Virus record (IMG/VR): IMGVR_UViG_3300042937_001207
Source of the DNA: an uncultured virus (IMG/VR IMGVR_UViG_3300042937_001207)
Taxonomy: Duplodnaviria > Heunggongvirae > Uroviricota > Caudoviricetes
Direction: 5' to 3' (one strand)
DNA: 60,576 nucleotides
Below are positions 25,191 through 60,576 of the stretch, one piece after another. Both the position numbers and the translations under genes were made by a program. Position 1 is the stretch's first letter. Each line of letters opens with the position of its first letter. Below the pieces are notes generated by a model. It did no database searches. It saw nothing but the letters and a program-made list of their open reading frames with translations, and was not told where the DNA came from.

Positions 25191-25211
25191 ACATCCTCCG
25201 TTGGTGCGTTG

Positions 25212-25284
<73 letters not shown>

Positions 25285-34693: not shown

Positions 34694-35317
34694 CTATGCC
34701 TGAGTTCCGTCAGATACGGTTTCCTCAGCATCTATTATCTCTCCATCTTCTATTGCAGGTTCATCAAGTATTGAGTTAATCACATCCGATGGCAACACAC
34801 CGCTTCGGCCCATTATCTCCAAGAGCTTACGGGCTTCTGACTCAGGAGAGAATTGACTTGTAGTACTTACATCTATAACGCCAGAAAGCGTAGACCTAAC
34901 ATTAACCTGCGAATTGACATCCATTTGTATGTTGAGATTTGTTTGTTCCATGCCAAGAAGTCTTGAGCGTCTGTCCATTATCGAAAGAACCTGCTGGATT
35001 GCCTTTAGGTCTGGCTCAGCAGTTACCTGCGTTCCGTCGTCCATTTCAATCTTTCGGTGTTGAGTCATGGGCCAGATAGCGGACTGAAGAGAATCAAGTC
35101 TTTCAAGCTCCATTCTGAGAAGCTCTGGATATGCAACAAGGGCTTCTGAGTTGAGCTTTTCAAGCTGTCTTCTTATTGCAGTACCTACAGCACGACTCGT
35201 CATGCCGAACCTACGGGCTATCTCGGTATGGGTAACTCCAGCTTGTCTTAGCTTGAATATACGCAAGTCTCTTTCAGCAAGAAACTCCCTTGTCAGCCCA
35301 CCTTCGTTTTTAGACAC
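34694..35317 (-). CDS. HTH DNA-binding protein, possible terminase small subunit
   Basis: LRQAGVTHTEIARRFG HTH; ELERLD.LQ.AIW..DLKAI..VLSIMDRRSRLLG pattern of actinophage HTH/TerS-like proteins. Confidence 0.6.
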   Translation of the reverse strand: MSKNEGGLTREFLAERDLRIFKLRQAGVTHTEIARRFGMTSRAVGTAIRRQLEKLNSEALVAYPELLRMELERLDSLQSAIWPMTQHRKIEMDDGTQVTAEPDLKAIQQVLSIMDRRSRLLGMEQTNLNIQMDVNSQVNVRSTLSGVIDVSTTSQFSPESEARKLLEIMGRSGVLPSDVINSILDEPAIEDGEIIDAEETVSDGTQA

Positions 35318-37066: not shown

Positions 37067-37419
37067 TATGTGCTCATTAGGTTCTGGAGTCTGATTGTCT
37101 CATCGTATCGGCGTGTTTTGAAACTCATCTTCTGTCGGAGGAATTTTCGTTGGCTTTCTGTCATACCTCCCCATATTCCAAAAGGCTCCCACTCCATTGA
37201 GTAAGTAAGGCATTCCATCTGTATTGGGCATATGGCACAGATGCTTTTAGCTTTATTTATCTTCTCAATCTCTTCTTTCCCTATGGGCGAATCTGGGAAA
37301 AACCATTCTGTTGGATGAGACGTGCATGCTCCACCTTTGGGGAAATCTGGTGGACCTAAAAGGTTTAGCGATTCATGTCTGCCGTTGAACTGCTGATTCT
37401 TTTTTTCATCCAAAGTCAT
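37066..37419 (-). CDS. whiB: WhiB-family transcription factor
   Basis: GAC..WFFP..AKSICAICPIQMECL..GIWGGMTESQR. Confidence 0.93.
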   Translation of the reverse strand: MTLDEKKNQQFNGRHESLNLLGPPDFPKGGACTSHPTEWFFPDSPIGKEEIEKINKAKSICAICPIQMECLTYSMEWEPFGIWGGMTESQRKFLRQKMSFKTRRYDETIRLQNLMST

Positions 37420-45843: not shown

Positions 45844-45912
45844 GTTCGTATTCTCCTTGTGTTGAGTTGATTATCGCCAAAAGCAGCTTATCACCCATGA
45901 TAGGCTCTGTCA

Positions 45913-46131
45913 ATGGCTACTAATCCTTTTGAAATAAGGCTTTCGTTAACCAATGCGATTGCCAATTCGCTGTTTGATATTGCTTTTGACCAAAGCTTAT
46001 CCGACGCTGAGCTTAAACAGCAACTTGAAGACTACAAAGATGTTGCGGCAATGATTCTTGAAGACCTTGGATGTGAAGTCCTTGAACTCAAAGAAGGAAA
46101 GATGATTTGCTCCTTCAGTCCACAAAAATAA
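45913..46131 (+). CDS. Small hypothetical protein
   Basis: 72 aa; leaderless TAGGCT-N6-ATG. Confidence 0.65.
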   Translation: MATNPFEIRLSLTNAIANSLFDIAFDQSLSDAELKQQLEDYKDVAAMILEDLGCEVLELKEGKMICSFSPQK

Positions 46132-46133
46132 TA

Positions 46134-49100
46134 CGGGACTAGTAAGTGACAGGAGTAAATTGAAGCGCAGAAGAAGCGAAGCGACTGGTATTCCAAAGAA
46201 ATACGGAAGGCCCCATTTACTCCATTTACGAATGGCTGTAGGCCGAAGGCCGTAAGCCTGAAGAGCGAGCAGCGTTAAATGGATAAATGGAGGGAGTATT
46301 GCTTTGGAATGCGAGCAAGCAATTTCGCCGTGGACTTTTATTCAAATATATTCGGGACTAAAAACTGGGTAAGCATTTGCGTACGAAGTCGAAATGCTGC
46401 GCAGCTGTTTAGGGTGTTGTGCACGCCCAGCGTGCAAGCGAAGCGTCATAAGCCCTAATAGCGAAGCAACAGTTCGACTGTATGCAATGCGGTAATTGTG
46501 ATGAGACTAAATACGGGACTAATAACTGCTGGGAGCAAACAGCGAAGTTGCTTTCTTTTTGAGCATGGCGGGAGCGAGAAGGTTCCAGGAGCGGAGTTAT
46601 TTTACGATTAAAGAATTTAAGGGAACAAGCGAGGATGCGAGCGTTGAAGGACGAGAAGCTTGAATGCAAACAGTAAAAGTTCGGGACTAGAGACCATTCA
46701 AGCGGTGAGTCGTTTGAGGCGAGCTGCGATGCGCAGTGTACTTAAAGGATTTAAGAGTGAGATAACGAGCATTCTGGAATTTCGAGCGTTCGCCGAGTGA
46801 GAAAAGAAGCACGAGCACAAGTTGTGATTTTTGTAGCAAGCGAAGCTTGCGGGACTATAGAGAATGTTTTATAAGCAATGTTTAACAAACAGCTTTACGA
46901 AGTGAAACCGGGCAGCTGCTGAAGGTTGGTGGTAGCTCTTTTGCGGACACCACCGGAAGCATCTGCTGGTGAGCGAGTAGGCGTGGACTTTTATTTATCA
47001 AAAAAAAACGGGACTAATAACCACATGGTTAGGCATGTGCCTGTTTTGAAAAGGAGTGGAGCGACTGTTGGTTTTTAAAGTTTACGGAAGAGGCTCTTTT
47101 TGTCTTTTTTGAGCGAGGCACGAGCGAAAGCGACGCTTGCGGAGCGGTAAAAAGAAAAAAAGAGAGGGAGTAAAATTTAACAAACCATGAAAAACGGCAC
47201 TGCCGGGAGTTGTTAGATAAATTATTACGGGACTTACTTCTATAAGCCAACAAGCATTGCGTCTTTCTGTTCGATGTGAATGAGCGTGCTGGTAACGAGG
47301 TACGAAGTTACGCAAAGCGAAAGAACAACGAAAAAGAAAACGCATGCGGTAGCTTTTATTTGAAACGCATCGGGACTAAAAACCAACAACAACGAGCATT
47401 CCGAACGAAGCCAGAGTAGCCGCCGAGGCTTCCCGTAGTTTGCGTAGGGAGCCTGGCGTCTACCTGGCAAGCGAGGAGGCGAAGTGAAGCTTTATGTTTG
47501 CCTTTACGGGACTAGTTTTTGCGAGCGAGCAAGCATTGCATTTTCGTTCGACTCGGAGTGAGCGTGCTGTTCCGAGGTACGAAGGAACGCAAAGCGAACG
47601 TAGGTCGAAAAGAAAATGTATGCGGTGAGTGAGTACTAAGAAAAACGGGACTTATATGTTGCAGGACTGTTTGACGAGTCGCATAGCGACGAAGTGTTAT
47701 TTTGTGTACCCAGAAGGAGGAGTAAGGTATGCGTAGGGAGATGCGAAGCAACGAAGTGCGACAGCAATTCGGCGCTAGCATAAGCGAAGCGACCTTGCGA
47801 CCGAACTTCTGGGGTAGCAAAATACACGAGAAGCGTTGCGACGAGGCGAATGTCCGGGATGTCGCAATCAAAGATAGATATTTATTGAAGTCTCGGGACT
47901 CAGTAGTTGTTGAATCAATGATGTATTTCTTTCCTTCAAACAGCTTAGACAGATAAGAAATCTAGGCGATTCTAGAGAAGCGAAGCGAAGCTACGAATCG
48001 ACGGTTACCGGGTTCAAAAGCGGAGGGTTGTTGAGACCGAGCAGCGGTCGAAAACATCCGTAGCGTTGAACTCGGTAAAGATTTCGTATATGGATAAGCG
48101 GGAACCATTCATTCAATGTCCGTACGGGGCTGAAAACCTAAACAGTTATACCCGTTATCCGGGATGAGGAAGCGTACTTCCCACGGCCCCCCGCTCAGCG
48201 AGCACGAAATCATTTTTGATTTCGATGCCTCGCTCCGTGGGAATTCGCTGGTGCCAAAGTTGTTAGATAAATCTGCACGGGACTTGATAACAAGATTTTG
48301 TAGCACCACGGGTGGAGCGATGACTTGAGTGCGAGTATCGCTGTAGTGGAGCGGGTAAATCGATGAAGCTAGCGAGCGATTTTTGTGCAACAAAATGAAG
48401 CGAGCGTTGCTGAAGAGATTTCTCGCGTAACGGAAGTGGACGAGCGACTCAGTCAGAGCGTAACTCCGTTGGTGGTGCAAAATCTGGTGAGCTTTATACA
48501 GCTTTCTACGGGGCTTAAGAACAAATCCGGGCGTTCGTTTCTTTCTGTGAACCAGAGGTAGTGAGCAACGGTCAAGCCTCTTGACGAAGCGAAGGCGATG
48601 CAGCGCAATCGGTTGCGTCGGCTCGCTAAATGAGTTAGCGATGACTAATCAATCATCTGTCGGATAATCGGGACTAGAGACTTGATGCCGGGAAGAAGCT
48701 AAATCATTTAGTGATGCGTAAGCAACGATTGAGCTGACGGAGACGAGCCAGAAGTCAAGGGCTTGCAGTTGCGAACGGTCTCTGGAGAACAGAAGAACGA
48801 ACATGGTAATTAATCGGGACTATAAAGTTCTTTCTTTTATCAGTAAGGGTTAGTTATCTCGACCGAGCGAGTGTGCTGCGACGTTTCGGTGCGAGGAGTT
48901 CGGATTACTCCGAAACCGAGCATCGAGCGGAGCATCACGTGAGCGAGAGAGAGTAACGGTGGTTGTCCGGTGGATATTTACGGGACTAATAAGTAGCGAG
49001 CAGTTTCTGAGTACGCAACATTCAAAAGCGTAGTGAAGCATTTTCTGGATTGGAGACATCGCTAGGTACACGAAGGAGTGATGTTTGTGTTCGGACTTGC

Positions 49101-50743
49101 CGAAATACCAATCTATTGGTATGAGGTTGGTGGTCCGCAGGACTCACCAATCCGACAAGCAAACTGAAGCGACTGAAGTGTCCGCAGTGATGTCGGAGAG
49201 CCAGAATTGCGAACTTAGCGTTGAATGTGGAGTACTCGGAACGCAAGCGGTGACTGTTATTCAATTACCTACGGGACTAAAGAGTCTGAACAAGAGCGCT
49301 CTTCTGGGGCTATCCAGTAGCCAAGCGCAGCCTCGTGCGTGCGTGGGCAGCATGCCCTTGCGTGCACGGGCGAAGCGGGCGGTTGGATAGAAACAGAAAG
49401 TGCGTCTACCGGAGTTGTGTTCTTACTTATTGCGGGACTAGTGAATAGCGATGTTTCTCTTTTTGCGCAAGAAGCCTGCGGAGCGAGCAGTTCCTGAATC
49501 GTAGCCATGGCCGAGGTGGACGAATGAGCGATGTTTGTTGTACGGGCTTGACTACATATCGAAGCAGGATTCGATATGTAGTTTGGCGGTTCGTAGAACT
49601 CGCCAATCCGGGAAACAAACTGAAGCGATTGAAGTACCCGACGCTATGGCGGAGAGGCAGGATTGCGAGAGTAGCGAGGCTGTTTGCGGGAAAAGGAACA
49701 AGCGGGGATAGTTATTCAATAATCAATCGGGACTAATAAGCGTGCGCATTTCGCGTAGGAAACGGAGCTCGTGACGTAGCTTCGTGGAGCGCGGAAGTTC
49801 CTTCAAGCGAACACGAGCGGAGCACGAGCGGTGTTTCCGAGAGAATGCGGTAACCAAACAAATTACTAGGTCAATGTTATTAAGGTCGGGACTAATTACC
49901 AATTTAGGCAAGTAAGCCATTTCATTGACTGAACAACCGTGAGCGAAGCTTTCCCAGGCCGAGGCACGAGCGCCGGGAAGCGGAGCGGTCGGTAGTGAAG
50001 TCATGAATGGCGTCGGTTAGTGCGATTGGTGGCTGAGCATGGCGTAGAAGGCAAGCGAAGTACTTGCCGACGCGTGATAACGCATCGGTGCACCGAAGAC
50101 GAGCCGCTTGTCGGCAGCGGATTCGAGTGCATACGAAGCGAGCCTGCGAAGCCGTGCTGTGACACCAAGCAAGCACGACAGTTGTCATGGGGGCTTCGGG
50201 ACTAAAAAGTAATTACAGGTAATCAATATTTCCGGGTGTTGAGACATTTCATCGCGCAACCAGCACCGAAGCGGAAAAACTGCTTGTAGCGAAGCGGAAA
50301 GCGTTTTGTAGCGGTGGTGCAGGTGGAGCGTGAATGTCGACAAAGCGAGATAAGACCGAGCCTTGGTGGAGCGAGGAACCCAGGTGAAGCCAAGACGAAG
50401 TCTGGCGTAATCTGGGCTGCGAAGCGGAGCCAGTGTGAGGGTGAAATTGAGCGTGGATTGTTATGTCGGTCATCGGGACTAATAAATAACGATTGCGGCT
50501 GTCGAATAGTTATTTCATCCGCAGAACCACCCGTAGTGAGAAAACTGATGAGCACATTTATGGGCGAAATCGTTTTCGAACGGGGGGTGGTGAGCGGTGA
50601 ATAACGTCAAGCGCAATAAAACTGAGCCCAAGGTGGAGCGAGAAGCCGGGCGCTGCCACGCCGAAGGGTGGCCGCGTCTGGATACGAAGCGCAACCTGAG
50701 GCGAGGTTGCAATGGAGCAGGGACTGTGATTAGAGTCGGGACT
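46134..50743 (+). repeat. Non-coding array of 24 co-oriented CGGG(A/G)CT motifs separated by 136-310 bp structured units
   Basis: CGGGACT at 46134, 46353, 46514, 46682, 46850, 47009, 47228, 47371, 47507, 47646, 47894, 48278, 48669, 48815, 48981, 49272, 49433, 49728, 49887, 50197, 50474 and 50737; CGGGGCT at 48125 and 48509; long inverted repeats in the units examined; no credible CDS. Confidence 0.92.
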
Positions 50744-50806
50744 GAAAGACATGCAGCAGCAGGGCTGTTCTACCTATTAGTATCTCTTTCGCCAGGATGG
50801 AGAAAA

Positions 50807-51040
50807 ATGATGCAAAATGAAATGACTATGACACGCAGAAAAAGTAAACCACAGTCCCGTACGGAATTATGGCGTTGCCCCAACTGCGGGCATGAGGTTA
50901 GTATTGGCGTTCCTGCAATGCAAGCGTCCTGCAGTAATAAAGAAAAGCACACTTCTAGCACTGTTGAGATGGAATTAGTCCATTCTTTTTGGGATGACAA
51001 CATCAATGGTCGGAACGTCAAGTTTTATGAGCGCTCCTAA
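50807..51040 (+). CDS. Small Zn-ribbon protein
   Basis: WRCPNCGH...CSN..KH; GGAGA RBS. Confidence 0.55.
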   Translation: MMQNEMTMTRRKSKPQSRTELWRCPNCGHEVSIGVPAMQASCSNKEKHTSSTVEMELVHSFWDDNINGRNVKFYERS

Positions 51041-51162
51041 GCCCCGCCCGACTTCTTCGCAAGCCATCTCCAGGCAATAAAATAAGCCAAACCCCATACG
51101 GGACTCCAGACCGGTTTTCCCGGGGTTTTCAAAAGCAAAAAACAAATGACGGTGGCGGATGA
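51040..51162 (+). repeat. Tripartite intergenic element, copy 1
   Basis: AGCCCCGC at 51040, CGGGACT at 51099, ATGACGGTGGCGGATGA at 51146. Confidence 0.8.
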
Positions 51163-51218
51163 GAAATATTCTGCCTTGGGGGTTGCAAGCCGCAAGTATC
51201 CTCGCTACTATTCACCCC

Positions 51219-51428
51219 ATGCAAACCAAGCGGATTGAGCAGCTCGCAGTAGGGAACATCTTTACTTGGGCTTTTCACGAGCACTATCGGGTAACTGAAA
51301 TCAAAGCACCGACACGCAGCAACGGCAGCACTTATCTGCTCAGCTATGTCGGTCTAGAAACTGGAACCAAAGTTCTTGACCGCAAGATGCCTAAAAAATC
51401 AATCTGCGAATTCATCAAAGGGGAATAG
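51219..51428 (+). CDS. Hypothetical protein
   Basis: Promoter TTGCAA-N17-TACTAT-N7-ATG. Confidence 0.6.
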   Translation: MQTKRIEQLAVGNIFTWAFHEHYRVTEIKAPTRSNGSTYLLSYVGLETGTKVLDRKMPKKSICEFIKGE

Positions 51429-51430
51429 CA

Positions 51431-51601
51431 ATGGCTAAGAAACCACTTTACAAAAAAACAGTTATTTCAGGAAAGAAGTTCCGCAAGGCGTTGTACGAGT
51501 TTCTGCCTACAGCAGACATCGAGCACGACAACGAGGGCCAGGTAATTATTTACACAGGTCTCACCGAGGGAAACGGTGACAACTACGTACTTATTGACTA
51601 G
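51431..51601 (+). CDS. Small hypothetical protein (56 aa, not in the ORF track)
   Basis: MAKKPLYKK..DNEGQVIIYTGL; AGGGGAA RBS. Confidence 0.55.
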   Translation: MAKKPLYKKTVISGKKFRKALYEFLPTADIEHDNEGQVIIYTGLTEGNGDNYVLID

Positions 51602-51649
51602 AATAAAAATCACCCACTAAAAAATCAATTACTAAAAAAAGGAAACATC

Positions 51650-52126
51650 ATGAAAAGCAATTTAGAGCTGACAGAAGCTGCAACAGAAATTTTCAATGAC
51701 TTGGCTAACTGGCCGGGTCTTACAAAGTCCACGTGCCATATTTTCAAGAGCCGTGACGGGCAACTGGTGACACTTGGTGTCTACGGTGATATCTATGTTG
51801 GTTTGGAAAACATCGCCAACGAGACCGACGAAGAAACACTTCACGACTTCGAGTTTCTTGGAGTTGAAACCTCTGGCTGGGCAGCTCCTATTCGGGAAGG
51901 GGGCGACGATGACATCATCCCTAGCAGGCACCCAGAACGTCGTCGAGTGCGTATGTTGAGTGTTATTGACCGGACATGCCGCATTGCTTCGGTGATGAGC
52001 CTTGACGACGACGGAGAAATTCTTACCGACCTTGCAGGGAGTGGAAGCCTTGCTGATGCATTGCGTCTCGTGATGGCAAATGTCCTTGCAGCGGAAAGCA
52101 TCACTGCGGCTTGGGCAACAAAATGA
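51650..52126 (+). CDS. Hypothetical phage protein
   Basis: GWAAP..PS.HPERRRVR..GSGSLADAL; AAGGA RBS. Confidence 0.7.
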   Translation: MKSNLELTEAATEIFNDLANWPGLTKSTCHIFKSRDGQLVTLGVYGDIYVGLENIANETDEETLHDFEFLGVETSGWAAPIREGGDDDIIPSRHPERRRVRMLSVIDRTCRIASVMSLDDDGEILTDLAGSGSLADALRLVMANVLAAESITAAWATK

Positions 52127-52392
52127 GGTTGACACTCACGGTAAGCATGTTCAAGTTCGTTTGGGACGGCGGTCCGTACTGCAACATCTCCCACATCAAA
52201 GCTCCCTTGAAGCCGTTTACACAAATCCGGCTATGGGACATCGAGACAGCAAAAAGCATGATTGGAGAAATTGGGCAGCAGGGCACGGCAGAGCGTTTTG
52301 CTGTGAAGTGCAACGATTGGATTTCAACCGAAGCTTTTGATTGGCTTCGTTCTGGTGAACTTTCTATTCACATCATGGAGAATGCATCATGA
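52123..52392 (+). CDS. Hypothetical protein
   Basis: ATGA overlaps on both sides. Confidence 0.55.
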   Translation: MRLTLTVSMFKFVWDGGPYCNISHIKAPLKPFTQIRLWDIETAKSMIGEIGQQGTAERFAVKCNDWISTEAFDWLRSGELSIHIMENAS

Positions 52393-52673
52393 GTACAAAC
52401 ATTGGGTATGTGGTCAACAAGTACACGGGAGAAGCCTGTCCACTTGAACGGGTTCTTATTGTTGGCTCGACGGGTGAAGCTTCTGCTTACAGGAAAGACA
52501 ACGGTATTCGTCTTGGAGGTGATAAGCATGTCGTTGTTGTTGGAAAAGACGATACGTCTGAAGGAATGTACAACCACCCTGCGTGGCGAGCAAAAATGAT
52601 GCTTGTTGCCGGCCAGGCTGGCTTGCCGCTCTCTGCCTCGTGGGGAATTATGAGCATGACGAGGAGTAAGTAA
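52389..52673 (+). CDS. Hypothetical protein
   Basis: GGAG RBS; translationally coupled. Confidence 0.55.
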   Translation: MSTNIGYVVNKYTGEACPLERVLIVGSTGEASAYRKDNGIRLGGDKHVVVVGKDDTSEGMYNHPAWRAKMMLVAGQAGLPLSASWGIMSMTRSK

Positions 52674-53174
52674 ATGGGTTACACGCACTACACGGACAGG
52701 CCTGTCGGTAATCATGGAACAGCAGAAATGTTTGGGAAGCTTGCACTAGATGCAAAGCTGATTTGCGAGCACGCACAATCCATGGGCATTCGCCTGGCAG
52801 GACCTTTTGGAGAGGTCGGAACATCACCTGAATTTACCGAGGGTTATTTTGCTTTCAATGGTGAGGACGGCCCTGACGGTGATTTGTCGCACGAGACATT
52901 CCGGTGGGAAGCAAATCCCGTTCAGCCTGAGTGGCGGCAAGACGAGTTGTTCTATTTTGACTTTTGCAAAACAAATCAGAAACCGTACGATGCGGTAGTT
53001 ACAGCTATCCTTATTCGAGCAAAAGTAATCTACGGTAAATTGCTGCAGGTAAGTTCTGACGGAGAATGGACAGGAGACCAACTGTCGTGGGGTACATGGG
53101 CCTCAGGGAGGGCGCTATATGAAGAGGTATTCAACATCGAGGCTCCTTGCCCGTTCGTCCGGACTGAGGTTTAG
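52674..53174 (+). CDS. Conserved phage hypothetical protein
   Basis: MGYTHY..FNG..HETF..FCKT..KPYD.VVTA.L..VSSDG. Confidence 0.75.
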   Translation: MGYTHYTDRPVGNHGTAEMFGKLALDAKLICEHAQSMGIRLAGPFGEVGTSPEFTEGYFAFNGEDGPDGDLSHETFRWEANPVQPEWRQDELFYFDFCKTNQKPYDAVVTAILIRAKVIYGKLLQVSSDGEWTGDQLSWGTWASGRALYEEVFNIEAPCPFVRTEV

Positions 53175-53442
53175 GTTGTATGCAATCGTCGTCCTGTTGA
53201 TTATTTTCTGCGTATTCAACTAAAAAAGTTTGTCCATCGGTATTTCTTGATGCTTTACTTCTACACAAATTTTGTGTGCGTATAGAAAAAGTTCATCAAT
53301 ACTCTTTGCTCCGGAAATGCTACCGCACGGTAACCATGCTCTCACTAGACGCATCGTTGATTTACTTGTAGTGTCAACAGGGTTGCCACAGAAGTTACAA
53401 GGGACTAAACCTGACATTCAAACACTCTACATCGGAGGATGC

Positions 53443-53646
53443 ATGCCTTACAAGGATAAATCAAAACATTTAGAGTGGCAGCGTGAAAACCGAGAGAATA
53501 CATTCGCCAAAAAGCTTCGCAGGCGTGAATACGAACGAGAACGAAAGCGCCGCAAGAGGCTTGAGCAGATAAATTCTCTTCCTGAACCTGAGCGAAGCAA
53601 AAAGCTGGCCAAACTCAGGGGACCATACTCACGAAGCCTGTTATAA
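53443..53646 (+). CDS. Small basic hypothetical protein
   Basis: MPYKD..; GGAGG RBS. Confidence 0.55.
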   Translation: MPYKDKSKHLEWQRENRENTFAKKLRRREYERERKRRKRLEQINSLPEPERSKKLAKLRGPYSRSLL

Positions 53647-53655
53647 ACACTATTC

Positions 53656-54431
53656 AGCCCCGCTCCGCTCTTCTCTCTGCCGGCCGGTGCGCACGTAGAG
53701 CTATTTAGCCCCGCCCCCCACTTTCCCCCCAGCCCCAGACCCCTAGAAACAACTTTCGGGACTGCGTTTCGCTCTTTGCGACGACTTGATGACGGTGGCG
53801 GATGACGTGAGCTGCTTGCTCGACGTGGAAAAGTAAAACTTCCAGGCCAAAACTTCAGCTCAGCTCTTCGACTGCAGCTCCCGGGAATCAAACCAGAAAG
53901 GCAATTAGAAGCTATTCAGCCCCGCACGCAATCTTCTGAAGCGCGACATCCGGAATCTTGTGATTAAACCCCCTTCGGGACTGCAGTCCTTGAAATCAGC
54001 TTTTGATGACGGTGTCGGATGAGATTTGACTGGGCAGCTCGTTCGACCAGGAAGAAATAAAAAAATCTTTTTGTTGAGGTTGCTTTTTATCGTAGCTCTG
54101 GTTAATATGTCCATACCTACCTAAGGAGCTTCTATGCATAGAAGATAATCAGGGGGGTCGTTCTACCGAAAGGGTGAGCGGCCCCCCTTTTTTTATGCCT
54201 TTTTTCTGTTTCCTTCTCACGGTAAAAATCCTGCAAAAACTTGCAATTCTCTAGGACCCGGGTAACAGCTCATCAAAAGCTAAGTTTCAAGCTTTACAGC
54301 CCCGCCTCCCTCTACGTTGGCATTTTATCTCTTCGATGGCAGCACGAGTCGATGTCTGTGCATAAAACAAACAGCGGGACTGCAGGGTTTGGAATTATTG
54401 GACATTTTTGATGACGGTGGCGGATGACGTG
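53656..54431 (+). repeat. Tripartite intergenic elements, copies 2-4
   Basis: AGCCCCGC at 53656, 53707, 53918 and 54298; CGGGACTGC at 53757, 53976 and 54375; TGATGACGGTG(G/T)CGGATGA at about 53787, 54004 and 54409. Confidence 0.85.
54080..54195 (+). other. Promoter-RBS-minigene-terminator unit (MHRR*)
   Basis: TTGCTT-N17-TAATAT; AAGGAG at 54123; ATG CAT AGA AGA TAA at 54134-54148; GGGGGTCG...CGGCCCCC hairpin followed by a T run. Confidence 0.55.
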
Positions 54432-54614
54432 GCCACCCGGGTAGCTCAGCAAATAATTTTGCTTCGCTCGGCACCGTGGACCAGTTTTTCAGGTCTTGAT
54501 AGTGGACCAGTTTTTCAGGTCAAAAAAAAACAAAAAATGTTTGGAAATGTTTGCCTTGTTGGTTGTAAGCCGCTACTATGTACCCCATCAAGTACATCTA
54601 TTAAAGGAGGGCTC

Positions 54615-54896
54615 ATGGGCCGTAAGTATATTGAAGACCTTATTGAAGAGGGGTGGAGGCTCGACTTGGATTCGCTGATTGCAATCCATCTGTCAAACAA
54701 CCATTATCCAAGTGTTCCAGCAGTCATGGTTAAGCCATGCAAGGAAGCAATCCTCCACGCTGAGCAGGAAGCTCTCCATGAGCTTGTACAGCTCCCAGCT
54801 GGCGTCATGTGGCGCAACCAGACCTCCATTAAGGCTGGAACCCTCATGGACGCATTCCACCTGTGGTCATTCCTTGACCAAGTCCAGGAGGCGTAA
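54615..54896 (+). CDS. Hypothetical phage protein
   Basis: HL..NHYP.VP..MV.PC.EAI..HL..F; AAGGAGG RBS. Confidence 0.7.
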   Translation: MGRKYIEDLIEEGWRLDLDSLIAIHLSNNHYPSVPAVMVKPCKEAILHAEQEALHELVQLPAGVMWRNQTSIKAGTLMDAFHLWSFLDQVQEA

Positions 54897-54898
54897 TC

Positions 54899-55189
54899 AT
54901 GTGGGAAGACGTTGAAAAAGCAACAATGAGCGCACTGCTCATCTCTTGGGATTCATGCCACAAGATTTACCTCGCTATGGACGCTGAACAAGCTGCCTGG
55001 TTTGAGAGGAACTACACGGAAGAAAACAATTCAGTTTCTTTTCGTGGCGCTCCTTGGGAGATGTATGAGAAAATTCAGGAGTGGTGGGATGTCTCATGTT
55101 CACTCCGCTTCATCTCAGCTGTATGGACCGATAACGACAATCCAAATGATGGTTTCATTAGCTTGATTCCACAGTTCGCAGGAGTGTGA
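54899..55189 (+). CDS. Hypothetical phage protein
   Basis: WDSCHKIYLAMD..WW..SC.LRFI; GGAGG RBS. Confidence 0.7.
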   Translation: MWEDVEKATMSALLISWDSCHKIYLAMDAEQAAWFERNYTEENNSVSFRGAPWEMYEKIQEWWDVSCSLRFISAVWTDNDNPNDGFISLIPQFAGV

Positions 55190-55190
55190 A

Positions 55191-55430
55191 ATGACTATTT
55201 ACCATGTAACAAACCGTGAATCTCGCCTGCAGACGCAGGACCGCTACATTGTCTACAACTTGACCAAAGAGCTTCCAGTCGAGTGGAAGTACTGGACCGT
55301 TGACCAACAGGGTTACTGGCTCAACGAAAACGCCGAGTTCATCAGTGACTCTTTCTCCGATGTTGAGCTGGAGGATATGGAAGAAGACACAATCCATATT
55401 GAAAAAGACGAACTGCAAGGGGACCTCTAA
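55191..55430 (+). CDS. Hypothetical protein
   Basis: AGGAG RBS. Confidence 0.65.
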   Translation: MTIYHVTNRESRLQTQDRYIVYNLTKELPVEWKYWTVDQQGYWLNENAEFISDSFSDVELEDMEEDTIHIEKDELQGDL

Positions 55431-55599
55431 TGGACCTCTCCGTTCACAGGGCAATCTTTATCGCAACCAGCCTCTCGACCGTCCTGATGGCCTGGATGGC
55501 ATTTGCCGCCCCGGTTATTACTTCAAAAGAAATTGTTTGGAGTTGCATTATTGCTGGGGCACATGTAGTATCTGGTTATCAGTTATTAAAGGAGTTCAA

Positions 55600-55950
55600 A
55601 TGAAATCAGTTAAATCGGTTGAAGAGTCAAGGGAAGAAGCTGTAGAGCTTTGCTTGTTTGCTGAAAACGATAGCCGTTGTTATCACAACTACTTAGTGCC
55701 GGCATTCAAGAACCAGCAACGTCACTATGACCGTAATCTGAAAAAAGGAGTAGAGAGCAACTTCGACCTTACCGTTTTACTTTTCACGCACACCATGAAG
55801 CTTTGCGCGCAGGAATATTGCCGTCAACATGGTTCGCCAACTGTTAAGTGGCATGAAGTCTTCGATGTGCTTACACGAATTTACGCTGCTCGTCACTTCG
55901 CAGAATATTTCGTTGCAGAATACAACGCAGGAAATCGGTGGGAAATCTAA
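55600..55950 (+). CDS. Hypothetical protein
   Basis: AAGGAG RBS; EL.LFAEND motif. Confidence 0.7.
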   Translation: MKSVKSVEESREEAVELCLFAENDSRCYHNYLVPAFKNQQRHYDRNLKKGVESNFDLTVLLFTHTMKLCAQEYCRQHGSPTVKWHEVFDVLTRIYAARHFAEYFVAEYNAGNRWEI

Positions 55951-56126
55951 TGCAGAAGTATTCAATCAATATTGAGTTCTCTACTGACAGGCCAATGACG
56001 GACGACGAAATTGCTGCCATGGAGACTGCTGTTTATGTTCAGGTATCTGAGCCAAGTGGATTAGACGGCGACAAACGTGCCGGCTTCAACACACGAACAG
56101 TTGAAATCACGGTAAACGAGCTTTAA
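55950..56126 (+). CDS. Small hypothetical protein
   Basis: TAATG overlap. Confidence 0.55.
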   Translation: MQKYSINIEFSTDRPMTDDEIAAMETAVYVQVSEPSGLDGDKRAGFNTRTVEITVNEL

Positions 56127-56175
56127 AGGTTTCTGGCCACTAGGTCAGGATTAACAAATAAAACAAGGAGAAAAA

Positions 56176-56388
56176 ATGCAATCACGCATCAAAAAAGTTG
56201 CATCACGCATCAAGTCAAATCGCATGGAGGCTGGGTTGACACAACAGCAGCTTGCCGATTTCGCTGGCGTGGACCGCAAAACAATTAACCGCATCGAGAA
56301 TGGACACTTCTCCCCAAACATCGAGACGCTTCTTCGTATCTCAGTTGCTTTCGGAGTCAAGCCAGAAAGCCTTCTCGCTGGCGTTTAA
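56176..56388 (+). CDS. XRE-family HTH transcriptional regulator
   Basis: R...GLTQQQLADFAGVDRKTINRIENG..SPNIETL.RI; AAGGAG RBS. Confidence 0.92.
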   Translation: MQSRIKKVASRIKSNRMEAGLTQQQLADFAGVDRKTINRIENGHFSPNIETLLRISVAFGVKPESLLAGV

Positions 56389-56489
56389 TGCAGGCGCTAG
56401 TAGTTCTGCTCATTCTGTGGGTGCTCTTCTTATGAGGAGCACCCACTTTTTGGTTGTGTTACCACTTACAAGTCGTTAGGATTTAAATT

Positions 56490-56717
56490 ATGAAAGAATC
56501 AGTTACTAAACCAACAAAACTCTCAAAAGAGTTCTTAATTGCATTCAATGAGTACATTCTTGCTGGCTACAAGCTCCTGGATGCTTGGCAGTCGCTCGAC
56601 GAGAATCAGCTCGAGATGGTTAACAGCGATGTTTTCCCATTCAACATGTCTTTTGATGAGTACTTAGCCACAATGGCAAGCAACAAGTTTCGTTTAGAAA
56701 AGGAAAGCAGCTTCTAA
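56490..56717 (+). CDS. Hypothetical protein
   Basis: 75 aa; FPFNMSFDE. Confidence 0.6.
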   Translation: MKESVTKPTKLSKEFLIAFNEYILAGYKLLDAWQSLDENQLEMVNSDVFPFNMSFDEYLATMASNKFRLEKESSF

Positions 56718-56935
56718 TGGAAAAACAAGTTATACGCACCTACTCACGTTCTGAACAAGTAGAGATGAACTCTGCTGTAGGAAAAGTTGGTGAAGTTTCC
56801 ATCGAGGAGCTTCTCGTTGGAGTAAAAATCGTAAATGAGCGCTTTCGCTACGGCCATTACGATGTTCTCGTATCTCCGCTCATCGGCAAAGGTGAGAAGT
56901 GGGTTGAATTCCACAAAGTTAGGGTAAAAAGCTAA
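56717..56935 (+). CDS. Hypothetical protein
   Basis: TAATG overlap; RYG..D.LV.PL.G.GEKWV. Confidence 0.65.
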   Translation: MEKQVIRTYSRSEQVEMNSAVGKVGEVSIEELLVGVKIVNERFRYGHYDVLVSPLIGKGEKWVEFHKVRVKS

Positions 56936-57576
56936 AAAGGTATCGTTTTGAGTACTTTTTAGTCTTCCCGGGGTACTTCTCAGCAAAAATTACGCTTTTT
57001 AAATACTTTTACATGTTCTGGCCGTACTTTGTAGCCCCGCTTACGCGTTTTACCGTACTATTGATGTGTTCTGACGGTACCGGATGAGGAGTTTGAAATG
57101 AGTTTTTTAGATGCTTGGCGGCTTCTTGGTGTATTTATTATCTTCGCACTGCTTCTGGTCTCTTTTTTTGGTGGTTAGACGCCGGGCCGGCTTTCTCGAC
57201 CAATACCTACCGAAAAGAGCTTCCGAATGGGAGAAAACCGTACCCGACTTGCCAGGAGGGGGCCCCTGGCCGGCTTAAATACTACATCAAAAAGATTTCA
57301 GTCCCGTGCTTGACCGGATTCTGATTACGCGCTACGGTTCACCGCAAAAAGTAGTACATCGTGATTTACTTCTACGGATGTTAAAACGTTTCCTTCGACA
57401 AAGGTTTACTTCTCTCGCGTGATACTGATTCGGTAGTCAAATCAATGTTCAATAAACTTGGCACGGTGGTTGATGACCTCGTTACTCCTGTAGATAGACC
57501 AGTAAAAACGTTTGTACTACAAAGGGTTTGTGAACAAGCAGTTGCTTTTTTGCAAATGTCGCGCCAGGATGTTTTC

Positions 57577-57963
57577 ATGAATGAAAATTTGTTTGGTTTT
57601 GATGAGCCGGCAGCGCCCCGGGAAACAAAATCAAAGAAATCAAAACGTGCGAAGTCAAAGCTTGTAAGCCCCGCTGAGATTCAACAGGTTTTCGATGAAT
57701 GGCTACGGTGGTGTAAGACAAGCAGCCGGGGTGTTCGGCCGAAGCTTTCAGAAGAACGAAGCATAATTATCGGCTCTGCGATTTATGATTACGGATTAAC
57801 TGATTGTTTGCTTGCGGTTCAAGGCTGCAGCTTGTCTTCTTGGCACATGGGAGAAAATCCAACAGGAACCAGGTACGACGATATTGAATTAATCCTTCGT
57901 GATGCAAAGCACGTCGAGCGATTTGCCGGCCTGGCAGCTGCAGAAGAAGCTAAAAACGATTGA
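57577..57963 (+). CDS. Phage replication-initiator C-terminal-like protein
   Basis: VFDEW..KLSEER..I..AI..YG...C..AV.GC..S.WHMGEN..G..YDDIELILRDA.HVERF; start uncertain (ORF open from 57445). Confidence 0.6.
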   Translation: MNENLFGFDEPAAPRETKSKKSKRAKSKLVSPAEIQQVFDEWLRWCKTSSRGVRPKLSEERSIIIGSAIYDYGLTDCLLAVQGCSLSSWHMGENPTGTRYDDIELILRDAKHVERFAGLAAAEEAKND

Positions 57964-58110
57964 CAAAGCTTTTAAGCCCCGCTACAATTACCGGATGGCC
58001 AAAGATGACGTGCAGATTCAAGTCGGGACTGCACAGTCTGCTGGTATTCAGTTGTCGGGACTGCATACCAGCTGGCCGAGGTCTTTTTTGATGACGGCGG
58101 CGTATGAGCT
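57960..58110 (+). promoter_or_regulatory. Promoter with AGCCCCGC in its spacer, followed by a tripartite element
   Basis: TTGACA-N17(containing AGCCCCGC)-TACAAT; CGGGACTGCA at 58024 and 58056; TGATGACGGCGGCGTATGA at about 58089. Confidence 0.7.
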
Positions 58111-58205
58111 CGACGCGAGAGGTTGCAACGAATGAGGATTTCTAGTGTTGTGCTTATTCTTGCCTACACATATGCCCTGTATGCGCTGACGCGGAAGAAG
58201 AGCCG

Positions 58206-58682
58206 ATGACTCGTAACGATGTGGCGGCAATACTCCTCCATGTTTTCAACGCGTGGAACAACCAAGTCCCCCAAGTAGAGAAGCGCTACAAAGAACTCCT
58301 CAGCACCTGGGAACAAATCTTGGGTGATTTGACGGTGGAGGAAGTGAACGGAGCTGTACGGACTCTTATAGCTCTTGACAGGGCCAATATGCCCAGACCA
58401 GGGACAATACGCCGGGAAGCTCTCTCAAAGCGTCTGGACGCTCCTCCGGCAGCTTGGGAAGCTTGGGTCAAGCTGCGAGAACTGGGAGAAGGCGTAAACA
58501 GCGGAACCCAGTCTTTAGCGTCGGTGGGGGAAGTCCACGAGGTCCTTCGGAAAACAATCATCCGCCTGGGAGGGAGTCAAGCGTTTACACTCGCTACCAA
58601 CGGAGACCGACAATTCTTCATCGAAGCTTTTTCCCAGGAAGCTTCTCGGTGGGAGGAAGAGAACTACAGCACTCATGGCTAA
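58206..58682 (+). CDS. Helicase loader/inhibitor-like protein (G39P-like)
   Basis: MTRNDVAAIL...W..ILGDL..EEV..AV..LI.....P.PG.IR, A.EAW; follows the initiator-like gene. Confidence 0.6.
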   Translation: MTRNDVAAILLHVFNAWNNQVPQVEKRYKELLSTWEQILGDLTVEEVNGAVRTLIALDRANMPRPGTIRREALSKRLDAPPAAWEAWVKLRELGEGVNSGTQSLASVGEVHEVLRKTIIRLGGSQAFTLATNGDRQFFIEAFSQEASRWEEENYSTHG

Positions 58683-58857
58683 GAACGGAAGACCACCAAA
58701 AGCTACTGCCGGCAAGTGGGCCGCAGTTACAATGCGCGTGCCGGCCGAATTCAAGAACCACATCATCGAAGTCTCTGATGGCTACGACATGACCATCACC
58801 GAATACATCAAAAGTCTGATTGAGCGCGATGCCCCATTTACCAGTAAGAGCAGGTGA
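58675..58857 (+). CDS. Ribbon-helix-helix protein
   Basis: GRPP..VTMRVPAEFK.......MTITEYIKSLIERD. Confidence 0.7.
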   Translation: MAKNGRPPKATAGKWAAVTMRVPAEFKNHIIEVSDGYDMTITEYIKSLIERDAPFTSKSR

Positions 58858-59173
58858 CGACGACGGGGAGTACAACCTCGTCATCAGAATGTCCGGGAAG
58901 CTCAAGAACCAGATAATTGATATCTGCGAAGCAAACCACACATCTATTAACAACTGGGCCCTAGGGGTCATCTACGGTGCCGTAAGAGCCGGCAGAGGAC
59001 TACCGATAGCACCGGAACCAGTAGCTCCACCGCCTGGAACGATTGAGCAGATACGCGCGTACCTCGACGGCGAGCGGCTCATCATGCCTTGTGGTAAGTC
59101 CCGCTGCGATATTCAGCTGGAGCTCGTCGGTGGATTAGAATTCTGCAGCACGTGTGGTGTTCGCACCAGATGA
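58829..59173 (+). CDS. Ribbon-helix-helix protein with C-terminal Cys motif
   Basis: NLVIRMSGKLK........SINNW; PCG..C...FCSTCG. Confidence 0.6.
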   Translation: MPHLPVRAGDDDGEYNLVIRMSGKLKNQIIDICEANHTSINNWALGVIYGAVRAGRGLPIAPEPVAPPPGTIEQIRAYLDGERLIMPCGKSRCDIQLELVGGLEFCSTCGVRTR

Positions 59174-59247
59174 GCGTCGATAGCTCAATCGGATAGAGCA
59201 ACAGACTTCTAATCTGTAGGTTGTAGGTTCGATTCCTACTCGACGCG
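59174..59247 (+). tRNA. tRNA-Arg(TCT)
   Basis: GCGTCGA..AGCTCAATCGGATAGAGC ACAGA-CTTCTAA-TCTGT..GTAGG-TTCGATT-CCTAC TCGACGC G. Confidence 0.95.
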
Positions 59248-59262
59248 CTGTAATTGTAAGTC

Positions 59263-59291
59263 TTGACAGTAATACTTACTATTGCTATGCT
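59263..59291 (+). promoter_or_regulatory. Promoter upstream of tRNA-Asn
   Basis: TTGACA-N17-TATGCT. Confidence 0.7.
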
Positions 59292-59352
59292 TCCCTATGA
59301 GGGGGCTGTGTGTATAACGCGCCTTAAACGACACTGTGGTGTGCCCTCGCTT

Positions 59353-59428
59353 TGGCGAGTAGCTCAGCTGGCAGAGCAGCGGACTGTTAATCCGCTTGTC
59401 GTAGGTTCGAGCCCTACCTCGCCAGCCA
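59353..59428 (+). tRNA. tRNA-Asn(GTT) with encoded CCA
   Basis: TGGCGAG..GCGGA-CTGTTAA-TCCGC..GTAGG-TTCGAGC-CCTAC CTCGCCA G CCA. Confidence 0.95.
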
Positions 59429-59446
59429 GTGATGTAAAATAAAAGA

Positions 59447-59839
59447 ATGTCCGAGCAAAACAATCAAAATGAAACCTGGGGAACATACAAGGGCGAGATT
59501 AAGGGTTTTCGTTTTGAAAACTCAGAAACAAAACGTCTTGGTCCACCTATCGGCGGAAGTGGTGTCCAATCCGAAATTGACAGAGACTCTGACGGGAATA
59601 TAGGGGATGGAACCCCTGATGAAAGACCAGCCCCAAAGAAGGGCCCATCGAAGAACCCGCCCAAAGTTAGACGCATAGACGGGAAGTGGCAACCACAAAA
59701 ACCATCACCATATAAGCCTGGATACATTCTTGAAGACCGCAAAGGGAACCTCAATCGATACAACGGTAATCCACCAAAGAATAAAAAATACTTTAGAGAA
59801 AAACTTGATGGCAGCCTTCAGGAATTTGGTACAGCCTAG
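59447..59839 (+). CDS. Hypothetical Pro/Lys-rich protein
   Basis: Leaderless TAAAAT-N6-ATG; DRDSDGNIGDGTPDERP. Confidence 0.6.
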   Translation: MSEQNNQNETWGTYKGEIKGFRFENSETKRLGPPIGGSGVQSEIDRDSDGNIGDGTPDERPAPKKGPSKNPPKVRRIDGKWQPQKPSPYKPGYILEDRKGNLNRYNGNPPKNKKYFREKLDGSLQEFGTA

Positions 59840-60070
59840 AACGGGCTCTCAGTCTTCTTCTTCTTCTTTCTCACCGCATACAGGGTAGACCGGTATAAAC
59901 GGGCACCTGCATGGCAATCCTGGAAGCAGCATACTTTTCCTCACGTAGATTTATTACGACTTGTACTTATTGTCGCATAGATTTAGTCGCACACAAAATG
60001 CAAATACAAAACTAGGGGTAAGCAACAAAAATCTGACACGGCGGCTTACTTTTCGTCCCCAATTTGTCTT

Positions 60071-60325
60071 TTACTTGCTCGGCAACCCATCTGGTCGTAC
60101 GAACTGCAATCGCCAGTTCTTCTGTTCAAACTCGAGCGTCTTCTCATACGCATTCTTAAGTCGCTCAAAAGCTTCCTTCGTCTCTGCATACTCCGATGTT
60201 CCGTTCCTCTGGCTCATCTTAAGTTCAGCCATCTTGGCTGTAAGCAACCTGCACAGCATCTTGTACTGGTACTCATTCATTACAACCGGCACTACATGAT
60301 TCTTCTTGCTCATTAGTCGTTCCAC
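60071..60325 (-). CDS. Hypothetical protein
   Basis: About 80 aa, coupled to the whiB stop. Confidence 0.55.
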   Translation of the reverse strand: MERLMSKKNHVVPVVMNEYQYKMLCRLLTAKMAELKMSQRNGTSEYAETKEAFERLKNAYEKTLEFEQKNWRLQFVRPDGLPSK

Positions 60326-60573
60326 ATCTGGCTAAGCGTTGGCTTAGTAGGTGCGATTCCTCTCCTTCTTTGTTCGGCCGCTAATTGTCTTGATGTCATC
60401 CCTGCCCATACCCCGTGCATGTCAGCAGGTGGAAACTCTAGTGCATACTCCAGGCACTGTGGTCGAACAGTGCAGTACGCACACATCTCCCTAGCCCCCT
60501 GAATGTAACTAATGTCCTTGTGTCCTTTAGGAAACATCTCGTTAGTACGACCCTTGCATCTTGCTAGGTCCAT
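60313..60573 (-). CDS. whiB: WhiB-family transcription factor (may start beyond the window)
   Basis: ARC..MFP..AREMCAYCTVRPQCLEYAL..GVWAGMTSRQ. Confidence 0.9.
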   Translation of the reverse strand: MDLARCKGRTNEMFPKGHKDISYIQGAREMCAYCTVRPQCLEYALEFPPADMHGVWAGMTSRQLAAEQRRRGIAPTKPTLSQMWND

Positions 60574-60576
60574 CCA

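Follow-up and report, generated by a model that had tools for sequence, protein, structure and literature searches.

The stretch of DNA analysed here, 60,576 nucleotides of an uncultured virus of the Caudoviricetes (IMG/VR record IMGVR_UViG_3300042937_001207; the whole stretch is called the window below), carries genes for an HK97-type capsid protein, an SNF2-type helicase, a primase-helicase, SSB, a class II ribonucleotide reductase, thioredoxin, a C5 DNA methyltransferase and WhiB. Beginning 290 nt downstream of ssb, directly behind an open reading frame (ORF) of 72 amino acids, lies an array of 23 non-coding hairpin modules, each starting with the heptamer CGGGRCT; besides ssb and the 72-aa ORF, its neighbours are small ORFs without matches. 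In a preliminary description of the window this region had been proposed to be functional and to consist of folded nucleic-acid modules that each bear a recognition site. Folding z-scores, compensatory evolution, the distribution in related phages and the absence of a coding signal agree with this proposal, and the array most likely represents an uncatalogued set of small structured RNAs.

On the two strands of the window the heptamer is found 42 times, as compared to 6.91 +/- 2.54 times expected from 100 dinucleotide shuffles, none of which reaches 42 (0/100), so that the excess holds against shuffled controls. Within positions 46134-50743 it occurs 24 times, always on the + strand (24/24; none on the - strand), as CGGGACT in 22 cases and as CGGGGCT in two (48125 and 48509). 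Number, variants and polarity thus agree on recount with those given before, as do the heptamer-to-heptamer intervals, which range from 136 to 310 nt and fall between 136 and 170 nt in 13 of 23 cases. One point has to be corrected. Of the 24 heptamers, 23 head hairpin modules; the 24th (50737) heads a small gene instead. Substitutions between relatives are 3-periodic in this gene (59/31/26, p<0.001), and its product, whose reading frame ends at 51040, gives only a weak zinc-ribbon match below the cut-off. Beyond the range given before, further + strand copies are present at 51099, 53757, 53976, 54375, 58024 and 58056.

For comparative analyses, 80 related loci were retrieved via the helicase, and a complete relative, G002 (173,962 bp with a 123-bp terminal overlap), was used for genome-wide tests. 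The extended heptamer consensus is approximately W-CGGGACT-[A/C]-NNN-A-[G/C]-[T/C], with A at position +11 in 20/24 sites of the window and in 17/19 sites of a second phage clade described below. In 59 ungapped orthologous comparisons the heptamer itself (0.97-1.00), the A at +11 (0.98) and a block from -36 to -25 rank among the most conserved positions, the upstream values being biased upward as comparisons were kept only at an upstream identity of at least 60%. The array has a GC skew of about +0.2 and a purine content of 58%. Several purine words are strand-specific, as seen when counts on the + strand are set against those of the reverse complement: AGCGA (48 vs 5), AAGCG (41 vs 2) and GCGAAGC (13 vs 0, with 0.4 expected), and likewise GAAGC and CGAAG.

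The earlier statement that the array encodes no credible protein was upheld by three kinds of evidence. Substitutions between relatives are 3-periodic in none of the 23 units (all p > 0.1), while the gene-bearing 24th interval is positive; a length divisible by three is found in only 10 of the 207 indels among relatives; and none of the 12 longest array ORFs (0/12) has a Pfam or PHROG match. ORFs of up to 123 aa are listed in the region, and one frame of the - strand has few stops (29 in 1536 codons), which is explained by the pyrimidine-rich composition of this strand. A read-through code for the array was considered and rejected, because the + strand is rich in all three stop codons.

When folded with RNA parameters, the 24 intervals have a mean z-score of -2.99 on the + strand and -2.43 on the - strand, as compared to -0.33 +/- 1.1 for 22 coding controls. 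The z-score is below -2 in 16/23 units, with -7.3 and -9.0 as the best values. Most units therefore fold much better than their shuffles. Among the seven units that are not significant by energy, four (46850, 47228, 48509 and 49728) still show compensatory changes.

Covariation was assessed in 24 unit alignments with 4-8 distinct sequences each. In the consensus structures, 300 cells at 139 pairs are changed on both sides, 372 are changed on one side and 152 are broken, as compared to 30 double, 166 one-sided and 228 broken cells in a control in which the 3' partner was slid by two columns. Thus, the folds of the array are kept by selection in related phages through compensatory change. In the best-supported unit (47646), 96.7% of the cells are paired, as compared to 35-43% in slid controls; none of 500 shuffles reaches the observed value on four of five measures, and 42/500 do so on further pair types. 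In unit 47507 the inner stem is GTTCC/GGAAC, whereas relatives and its paralogue have GTGAC/GTCAC and GTAAC/GTTAC instead. Two such paralogue pairs (47228/47507 and 48981/49433) are present in the window, the units being otherwise mutually dissimilar. A covariance model of the first pair, R1, finds eight family members at 144-162 bits and, in addition, 16 weak matches at 10-21 bits, all on the + strand inside arrays; the weak matches reflect shared border and closing features, with no clear homology.

The units mostly form one long rod, with one to three hairpin loops in 20/23 units. Their helices are short (mean 3.9 bp; at least 10 bp in 4/311) and are interrupted by symmetric loops, which in the consensus folds comprise 42 of 1x1, 26 of 2x2 and 38 of 3x3 type. 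The opposed bases in these loops are G and A in 166/315 cases, and GA/GA and GNA/GNA arrangements recur. These recurring G-A internal loops explain the enriched purine words, which in the consensus folds lie mostly within symmetric internal loops and not in mini-hairpins. In 10/23 units, 20-26 nt separate the end of the main hairpin from the following heptamer. By eye, about half of the borders show a closing element containing CGG or CGT near -24, followed by a T-rich, TGTTAT-like stretch, both weak in the logo. Stems that had been noted before are recovered: in unit 46134 the pairing of TATTCCAAAG with CTTTGGAATG falls within inverted repeat I1, and the consensus fold pairs GTATTCC with GGAATGC and CCATTTA with TAAATGG; the stems of unit 46353 are present in its consensus fold; and the GCAT...ATGCGGT closure is found in units 46353, 47228, 47507 and 49728.

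Furthermore, the pattern of non-canonical pairs distinguishes the two strands. In folds built from Watson-Crick pairs only, variation gives rise to G.T 316 times, at 170 pairs, and to A.C 189 times, at 92 pairs, counted in alignment cells. Flanked 1x1 mismatches inside helices are G.T in 16 and A.C in 3 cases, and G.U makes up 10.8% of the pairs in minimum free energy folds. As G.T is favoured over A.C, the strand that folds on its own is the + strand, which is in keeping with an RNA transcribed in the same sense as the neighbouring genes but also with + strand DNA.

Similar arrays exist in related phages, so that a possible objection to the preliminary description, that the array might be peculiar to one sequence, does not hold. 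The array is present in 18/18 loci that have at least 70% helicase identity and reach its position. Loci with 91-93% helicase identity have syntenic arrays of about 75-93% DNA identity, and other relatives contain 28-29 heptamers as compared to 25 in the window by the same count (24 in the array and the copy at 51099). In a second clade with 70% helicase identity (L020, L021, L299, L304 and L305) an array is found at the corresponding position, immediately behind a 72-aa ORF homologue, and comprises 29 heptamers in about 7 kb. It shares the purine words and has a mean z-score of -2.37, and its units have no DNA similarity to those of the window. The arrays of contigs L298, L299, L304 and L305 in this clade are 99.9-100% identical. 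At helicase identities of 67% or less, no same-strand run of more than five heptamers was found.

Relatives also differ by whole units: L006 is without exactly unit 47228-47370 and L007 without exactly 48278-48814, both deletion junctions lying on the shared heptamer with a 7-nt overlap. The proposal of a recombination cassette array therefore stands as far as gain and loss of whole units ending at heptamers are concerned; a dedicated recombinase is neither needed nor was one found, and the changes fit ordinary recombination between shared motifs. The array evolves by unit duplication, by whole-unit loss through recombination at the heptamer and by compensatory substitution that keeps the shape. 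In L299 (7576-9515), paralogous units follow each other in reversed order and the same orientation (7576/9387, 7945/8976 and 8416/8770), which would fit shuffling of single units and not duplication of a block.

Beyond these two clades the heptamer takes other forms. The distant loci L055 and L080 (56-60% helicase identity) have no array and carry the heptamer as inverted pairs (AGYCCCG-N18-21-CGGGRCT). L055 has 11 such pairs, for example at 10473-10506 inside the helicase gene, and L080 has them for example at 411-436 and 1022-1046; some lie in coding sequence and some beside intrinsic terminators. A search of viral contigs with a three-heptamer pattern gave 73 stretches, with true arrays only in this phage group; the other stretches examined are ordinary tandem, coding or CRISPR-like (clustered regularly interspaced short palindromic repeats) repeats. 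In genome contigs at least 121 stretches were found, and none among the matches listed resembles the array. Four viral contigs (L114, L116, L118 and L125) and four cyanobacterial genomes (L208, L214, L241 and L257) show CGGGACT in repeats with a period of about 72-73 nt and variable inter-repeats; these are probably CRISPR arrays unrelated to the hairpin array. A blastn search (11-base words) with the array gave no match in a phage GenBank collection, from which records of the window's own genome may be missing.

Downstream of the hairpin modules, all seven + strand heptamers (50737, 51099, 53757, 53976, 54375, 58024 and 58056) lie in gaps at the heads of gene runs, such gaps making up about 29% of 50744-60576 by the + strand gene calls made here. 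Five of the seven (53757, 53976, 54375, 58024 and 58056) read CGGGACTGC. At 20-26 nt downstream of CGGGACTGC, a conserved 20-nt box, TTGATGACGGTGGCGGATGA, is found on the + strand at 53786-53805, 54003-54022, 54408-54427 and, as a variant, 58088-58107. Its ATG opens an ORF of 162 aa at 54408 and ORFs of 7-15 codons at the other three sites; the boxes may have been left behind when cassettes were swapped, or may form a leader element. A strong hairpin rich in G and C followed by a T-run, resembling an intrinsic terminator, was seen by eye at about 54151-54197 (+) in the 53647-54407 gap and is unlisted by the terminator scan. A reverse-oriented variant, always CGGGGCT followed by NAAWAGCT, occurs on the - strand at 51040, 53656, 53707, 53918 and 54298 as well as at the site in Table 1. 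It immediately follows the stop codons that end + strand gene runs and precedes a forward CGGGACT by 43-70 nt; the same pattern is present in G002.

In G002, 34 of 35 heptamers lie within 0.7-12.5 kb; the remaining 159 kb contain one, as compared to 14.8, 13.1, 7.3 and 6.2 expected under Markov models of orders 1-4. With the same heptamer at the heads of units and of gene runs and its rarity elsewhere, we read it as a cassette-level expression signal: its distribution suggests that it behaves as a potent, locally used signal marking the heads of expression units. Most likely it would be a promoter or operator recognized at the DNA level by some factor and, less likely, a processing or binding site at the RNA level. 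An accessible RNA element was considered and rejected for the heptamer itself, as its local-fold accessibility does not differ from the background (median probability of all seven bases being unpaired 0.011, as compared to 0.007 for all positions); the five bases +7..+11 following it are locally the least paired (0.63-0.70).

Table 1. Positions in the window of the array, selected units, outer heptamers and upstream features
Feature	Position	Strand	Basis or remark
Array of 23 non-coding hairpin modules, heptamer at each start	46134..50736	+	Motif, spacing, folding, covariation, strand asymmetry, non-coding tests
Heptamer starts, units 1-12	46134, 46353, 46514, 46682, 46850, 47009, 47228, 47371, 47507, 47646, 47894, 48125	+	
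Heptamer starts, units 13-23	48278, 48509, 48669, 48815, 48981, 49272, 49433, 49728, 49887, 50197, 50474	+	
Unit 1, one long imperfect hairpin	46134..46352	+	RNA z -3.76; 62 pairs, 7 changed on both sides
Paralogue of 47507-47645, GCAT...ATGCGGT closing stem	47228..47370	+	Repeats D9, D11; covariance model R1
Paralogue of 47228-47370	47507..47645	+	Covariance model R1, stem replacement
Best-supported unit, 74-pair rod	47646..47893	+	RNA z -5.87; 19/74 pairs compensatory
Long unit, 291 nt, paralogue of 49433-49727	48981..49271	+	RNA z -7.31; repeat D3; 20 compensatory cells at 8 pairs
Long unit, 295 nt	49433..49727	+	RNA z -9.04; 24 compensatory cells at 10 pairs
24th heptamer, then small protein gene (start near 50808 by eye); end of the array	50737..51040	+	3-periodic substitutions
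Forward heptamer in gap before gene 51159-51428	51099..51105	+	
Three forward heptamers (53757, 53976, 54375) in 53647-54407 gap	53757..54381	+	Each followed by box TTGATGACGGTGGCGGATGA after 20-26 nt
Reverse-oriented variant (CGGGGCT + NAAWAGCT)	57975..57981	-	After the end of a + strand gene run
Two forward heptamers in gap before gene 58206-58682	58024..58062	+	
72-aa acidic ORF, stop 2 nt before first heptamer	45913..46131	+	
Candidate host-type extended -10 (TG-n-TAGGCT), 6 nt before ATG of 72-aa ORF	45898..45906	+	By eye; not listed by sigma-70 scan

Taken together, the array probably consists of modules of structured RNA that each carry an expression signal of their own. Expressed RNA modules are favoured by the strand-specific fold, which lies on the sense strand of the flanking genes, and by the heptamer at the heads of gene runs. 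According to this model, the 23 independent non-coding hairpin modules of 136-310 nt, which fold from the + strand alone, would most likely be transcribed into structured RNAs, running the same way as the small early-type genes on either side. A module is a long, mostly unbranched rod whose symmetric purine loops (GA/GA, GNA/GNA) can form G-A pairs, and the clade-specific heptamer CGGGACT at its head would drive or bound its expression.

Several observations weigh against this model. Folding is as strong with DNA parameters (mean z -3.11 on the + strand and -2.55 on the - strand) as with RNA parameters, so folding energies cannot tell RNA from DNA; G.T is also tolerated in DNA, and a fold of single-stranded + strand DNA is therefore compatible with the strand asymmetry. 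The covariation comes from few (4-8), closely related sequences per unit, and units 46514, 46682 and 48669 lack both a significant z-score and covariation, with 0, 3 and 0 compensatory cells, respectively. The 24 sequencing runs listed with the window are all lake-water metagenomes (24/24), none of them listed as RNA. As to the heptamer, it matches none of the promoter types tested, and little conservation is seen in the upstream block near -17..-12 (0.7 bit or less). Sigma-70-like sites are not enriched in the array (7 as compared to 8.7 in shuffles, none in register with the heptamer), nor are intrinsic terminators (9 as compared to 10.0). The reverse copies at the ends of gene runs do not fit a simple promoter, and the size of the depletion in G002 varies with the background model (Markov orders 1-4). 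No phage RNA polymerase or sigma factor was identified in the Pfam matches of the window ORFs, of 117 G002 ORFs or of a giant ORF described below; a search for T7-type RNA polymerase (PF00940) gave no match in G002 nor in any of 14 control genomes and is hence uninformative.

What such RNAs would do can be guessed from their form. Since shape and not sequence is conserved, helices are short and interrupted by G-A loops, and the copy number is high, our guess is that the rods act through shape and dosage, e.g. as decoys that titrate a protein binding double-stranded or structured RNA. Speculatively, the rods of these lake actinophages might bind such a host protein, an RNase III-type nuclease or an RNA-sensing defence enzyme, without being cut or sensed, as a battery of two to three dozen individually expressed RNAs of diverse sequence, zipped by G-A pairs and switched on together with the early genes by the heptamer. 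If true, this would be an RNA-based device for host takeover or anti-defence without a described phage counterpart.

Among the alternatives to individually expressed modules, we regard as doubtful, yet worth considering, a single long early transcript over the array, which might start before the 72-aa ORF. The heptamer would then be an RNA cleavage or binding site for an endoribonuclease or an RNA-binding protein, and the array either a precursor processed into many RNAs or a sponge of 24 sites between protective hairpins. Consistent with this, the unit borders are without sigma-70-type promoters or terminators, the 72-aa ORF stops 1-2 nt before the first heptamer in both clades, a candidate host-type -10 element was seen by eye before this ORF, and the bases following the heptamer are the least paired. 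Against it, local folding does not predict an accessible heptamer, no candidate for the nuclease emerged, and a signal acting in RNA only would leave unexplained both the rarity of the heptamer on either strand elsewhere and its reverse variant after gene runs.

It is unlikely that the hairpins work as folded single-stranded + strand DNA, for instance as priming or assembly sites, single-strand promoters or recombination sites during replication. The equal strength of DNA folding is in line with this idea, as are the enrichment of GCGAAGC-type words able to form stable DNA mini-hairpins, the position of ssb and of the nearby helicase and primase genes, and the fact that strand asymmetry proves single-strandedness only and not RNA. 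It is opposed by the alignment of the array with the flanking genes, on their sense strand and with a heading heptamer common to protein-coding runs, and by the location of the purine words, mostly in symmetric internal loops. Moreover, the cumulative GC skew of G002 has its extremes at 97 kb and 47 kb, away from the array, and the Pfam matches of 117 G002 ORFs and of the giant ORF contain no rolling-circle or HUH-type protein and no RNA-polymerase domain. The multi-site origin beside ssb that had been suggested thus finds no support in GC skew, which is a local feature at the array only, or in the spacing of the heptamers.

Even less probable is a row of gene-less border cassettes combining terminator and promoter, in which the hairpins would be mere terminators or insulators, or a sink for RNA polymerase. 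Such cassettes are known as promoter-early stem-loops (PeSLs) of T4-type phages, which are described, in the accessible part of the source, as composite terminator/promoter motifs mediating indels in hyperplastic regions (PMC4122927). The fixed distance of 20-26 nt between hairpin end and next heptamer in 10/23 units, the T-rich tracts after several of these ends, the indels between relatives that stop at the heptamer and the heptamers bordering small-gene cassettes downstream would all be accounted for. A rod of 90-280 nt is, however, unnecessary for a terminator. In addition, relatives maintain the sequence and shape of each individual unit by compensatory substitutions, a clade whose sequences are unrelated shows the same style of purine loops, and the terminator scan shows no excess. 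Finally, an explanation by protein-coding genes, decayed or of an unusual kind, or by an array of the CRISPR or integron type, can practically be dismissed: the ORFs of up to 123 aa and the sparsely interrupted - strand frame stand against 23/23 units without 3-periodicity, 197/207 indels that are not multiples of three, the lack of family matches for 12 ORFs and the pyrimidine-rich - strand; the common repeat is only 7-14 nt long, and inverted core sites are absent, with no reverse heptamer in the array.

Three further roles were considered and dropped: a Chi-like shield, as G002 has only the 123-bp terminal overlap; a target site of the adjacent C5 methyltransferase, for which there is no evidence; and self-cleaving ribozymes, for which there is no Rfam signal.

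The 72-aa ORF is the sole gene kept beside the array in both clades. It shares 50% identity with L021 16178-16405, which ends 1 nt before the first heptamer of the second-clade array, and has only nine close homologues, all hypothetical. Searches with its alignment recovered the same two clades only; homologues in L057 and L071 occur without an array. The candidate -10 element upstream resembles the extended -10 consensus, and transcription starting from it could possibly run into the array.

The remaining genes give the context of the phage. G002 has the same gene set together with portal, terminase, Rad52, RuvC and many 2-oxoglutarate oxygenases. WhiB and a ClpC1-like domain suggest an actinobacterial host; the WhiB gene lies at 37066-37419 (-). 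A giant ORF at 1-14127 (+), open at the window start, adjoins the capsid gene and encodes more than 4,650 aa (5,345 aa in G002), in which the only recognisable domains, ClpC-N-like, NUDIX and zeta-toxin-like kinase, lie towards the C-terminus. Beside the primase-helicase gene, 34694-35317 (-) encodes a 207-aa protein with an N-terminal helix-turn-helix (HTH; Sigma70_r4_2-type match, residues 13-55). It has 1983 metagenome homologues at E<=0.001, with identities down to about 60% among the 120 listed, which makes its gene part of the core set in a very large group of lake phages. As a binder of the heptamer it was rejected, being too widely conserved to be specific. tRNA genes (Met, Arg and Asn) are located at 25211-25284 (-), 59174-59248 (+) and 59353-59428 (+).

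If the modules are RNAs, about 4.6 kb (about 7 kb in the second clade) would be devoted to two to three dozen distinct folded RNAs that belong to no Rfam family, and the array would be among the densest non-coding RNA loci known in a phage. Short helices and G-A loops, with shape kept but not sequence, point to recognition by shape, and the private heptamer, which early gene runs also carry, suggests that phages of the abundant freshwater actinobacteria use an expression signal not yet characterised. With 23 putative RNAs, one heptamer and one 72-aa neighbour there are testable objects, which should bear on how such phages take over streamlined hosts.

When the array was compared with known systems, none of the 4227 Rfam models matched it at the gathering threshold, matches at E up to 10 being at chance level; the only gathering-level matches in the window are the three tRNAs, all outside the array. 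ARAGORN found no tRNA or transfer-messenger RNA in the array. As had been noted before, the array is not a CRISPR, a simple tandem repeat or a set of classical iterons, its shared repeat being short, its unit length variable and its spacing wide. CRISPR arrays consist of near-identical direct repeats of about 23-50 nt and unique spacers of similar length, whereas here the shared sequence is 7-14 nt and the units are 136-310 nt long. Iteron origins combine close direct repeats with an AT-rich unwinding region and a skew switch, unlike the wide spacing of the array and the distant skew extremes of G002. Integron attC cassettes have inverted core sites at both ends and an integrase gene beside the array; the array contains no reverse-complement heptamer, and no integrase is present in the Pfam and PHROG matches of the flanking ORFs or of 117 G002 ORFs. 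In ToxI-type type III toxin-antitoxin arrays, near-identical repeats of about 36 nt lie beside an endoribonuclease toxin gene. The likeness is in tandem RNA units bounded by a fixed short site; the difference is that the units of the array are unique except for two paralogue pairs and have no toxin neighbour.

Sponge RNAs such as CsrB/RsmZ, and adenovirus VA RNA, act by titration through many motif copies or imperfect duplexes. The array resembles them in having many copies of a short motif and imperfect duplex in one locus, which suggests titration, but has no sequence or Rfam relation to them, and its units of 136-310 nt are all different. DNA mini-hairpins of the GCGNAGC type serve as hairpin promoters or priming signals on single-stranded DNA. 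Words of the GCGAAGC type are enriched on one strand of the array as well, but mostly face a purine stretch in internal loops of long rods. N4-type hairpin promoters have a short stem, a 3-nt loop and an accompanying virion RNA polymerase gene. In the array GCGAAGC words are present, mostly in internal loops; no virion RNA polymerase was identified among the Pfam matches of the window, and the giant ORF shows only ClpC-N, NUDIX and zeta-kinase-like domains. GOLLD, ROOL and 6S/Ms1 are structured RNAs that occur in phages or are rod-shaped; their function is unknown or one of titration, and some lie near tRNA genes. The array likewise consists of structured rods in a phage but is modular, not one large RNA, and has no Rfam match.

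No description of such an array of heptamer-headed hairpins was found in the literature searched. In a 2023 catalogue of candidate structured RNAs in viruses (PMC10690425) the words 'tandem', 'array' and 'hairpin' are absent from the accessible text, and its supplementary tables could list single units. The stoperators of cluster A mycobacteriophages, as far as the accessible part of their description goes, are intergenic 13-mers spread across the whole genome (PMC9283540). They share with the heptamer a short asymmetric site in more than 20 copies whose orientation follows transcription in an actinobacterial phage, whereas the heptamers keep to a region of about 12 kb, where long hairpins stand between them. 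For a cognate two-domain repressor no homologue was found; the 207-aa HTH protein is without a sequence match to a solved repressor.

The nearest described architecture, by analogy and judged from the accessible part of the source, appears to be the PeSL cassettes of T4-type phages, which likewise combine a short conserved signal with a stem-loop where the small cassettes of a variable early region meet (PMC4122927). In the array a hairpin stands 20-26 nt before the heptamer in 10/23 units, the heptamer is found at 24/24 borders, and the deletions in L006 and L007 end at the heptamer with its 7-nt overlap. The sigma-70-type early promoter of PeSLs has no counterpart in register with the heptamer, whose own promoter role is putative, and the small-ORF cargo is missing from 23/23 units, although the downstream cassettes at 53.6-58.2 kb do carry ORFs. 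Thus, what sets the array apart from PeSLs is that 23 consecutive cassettes are gene-less and that their conserved cargo is the hairpin itself, 90-280 nt long and built with G-A loops.

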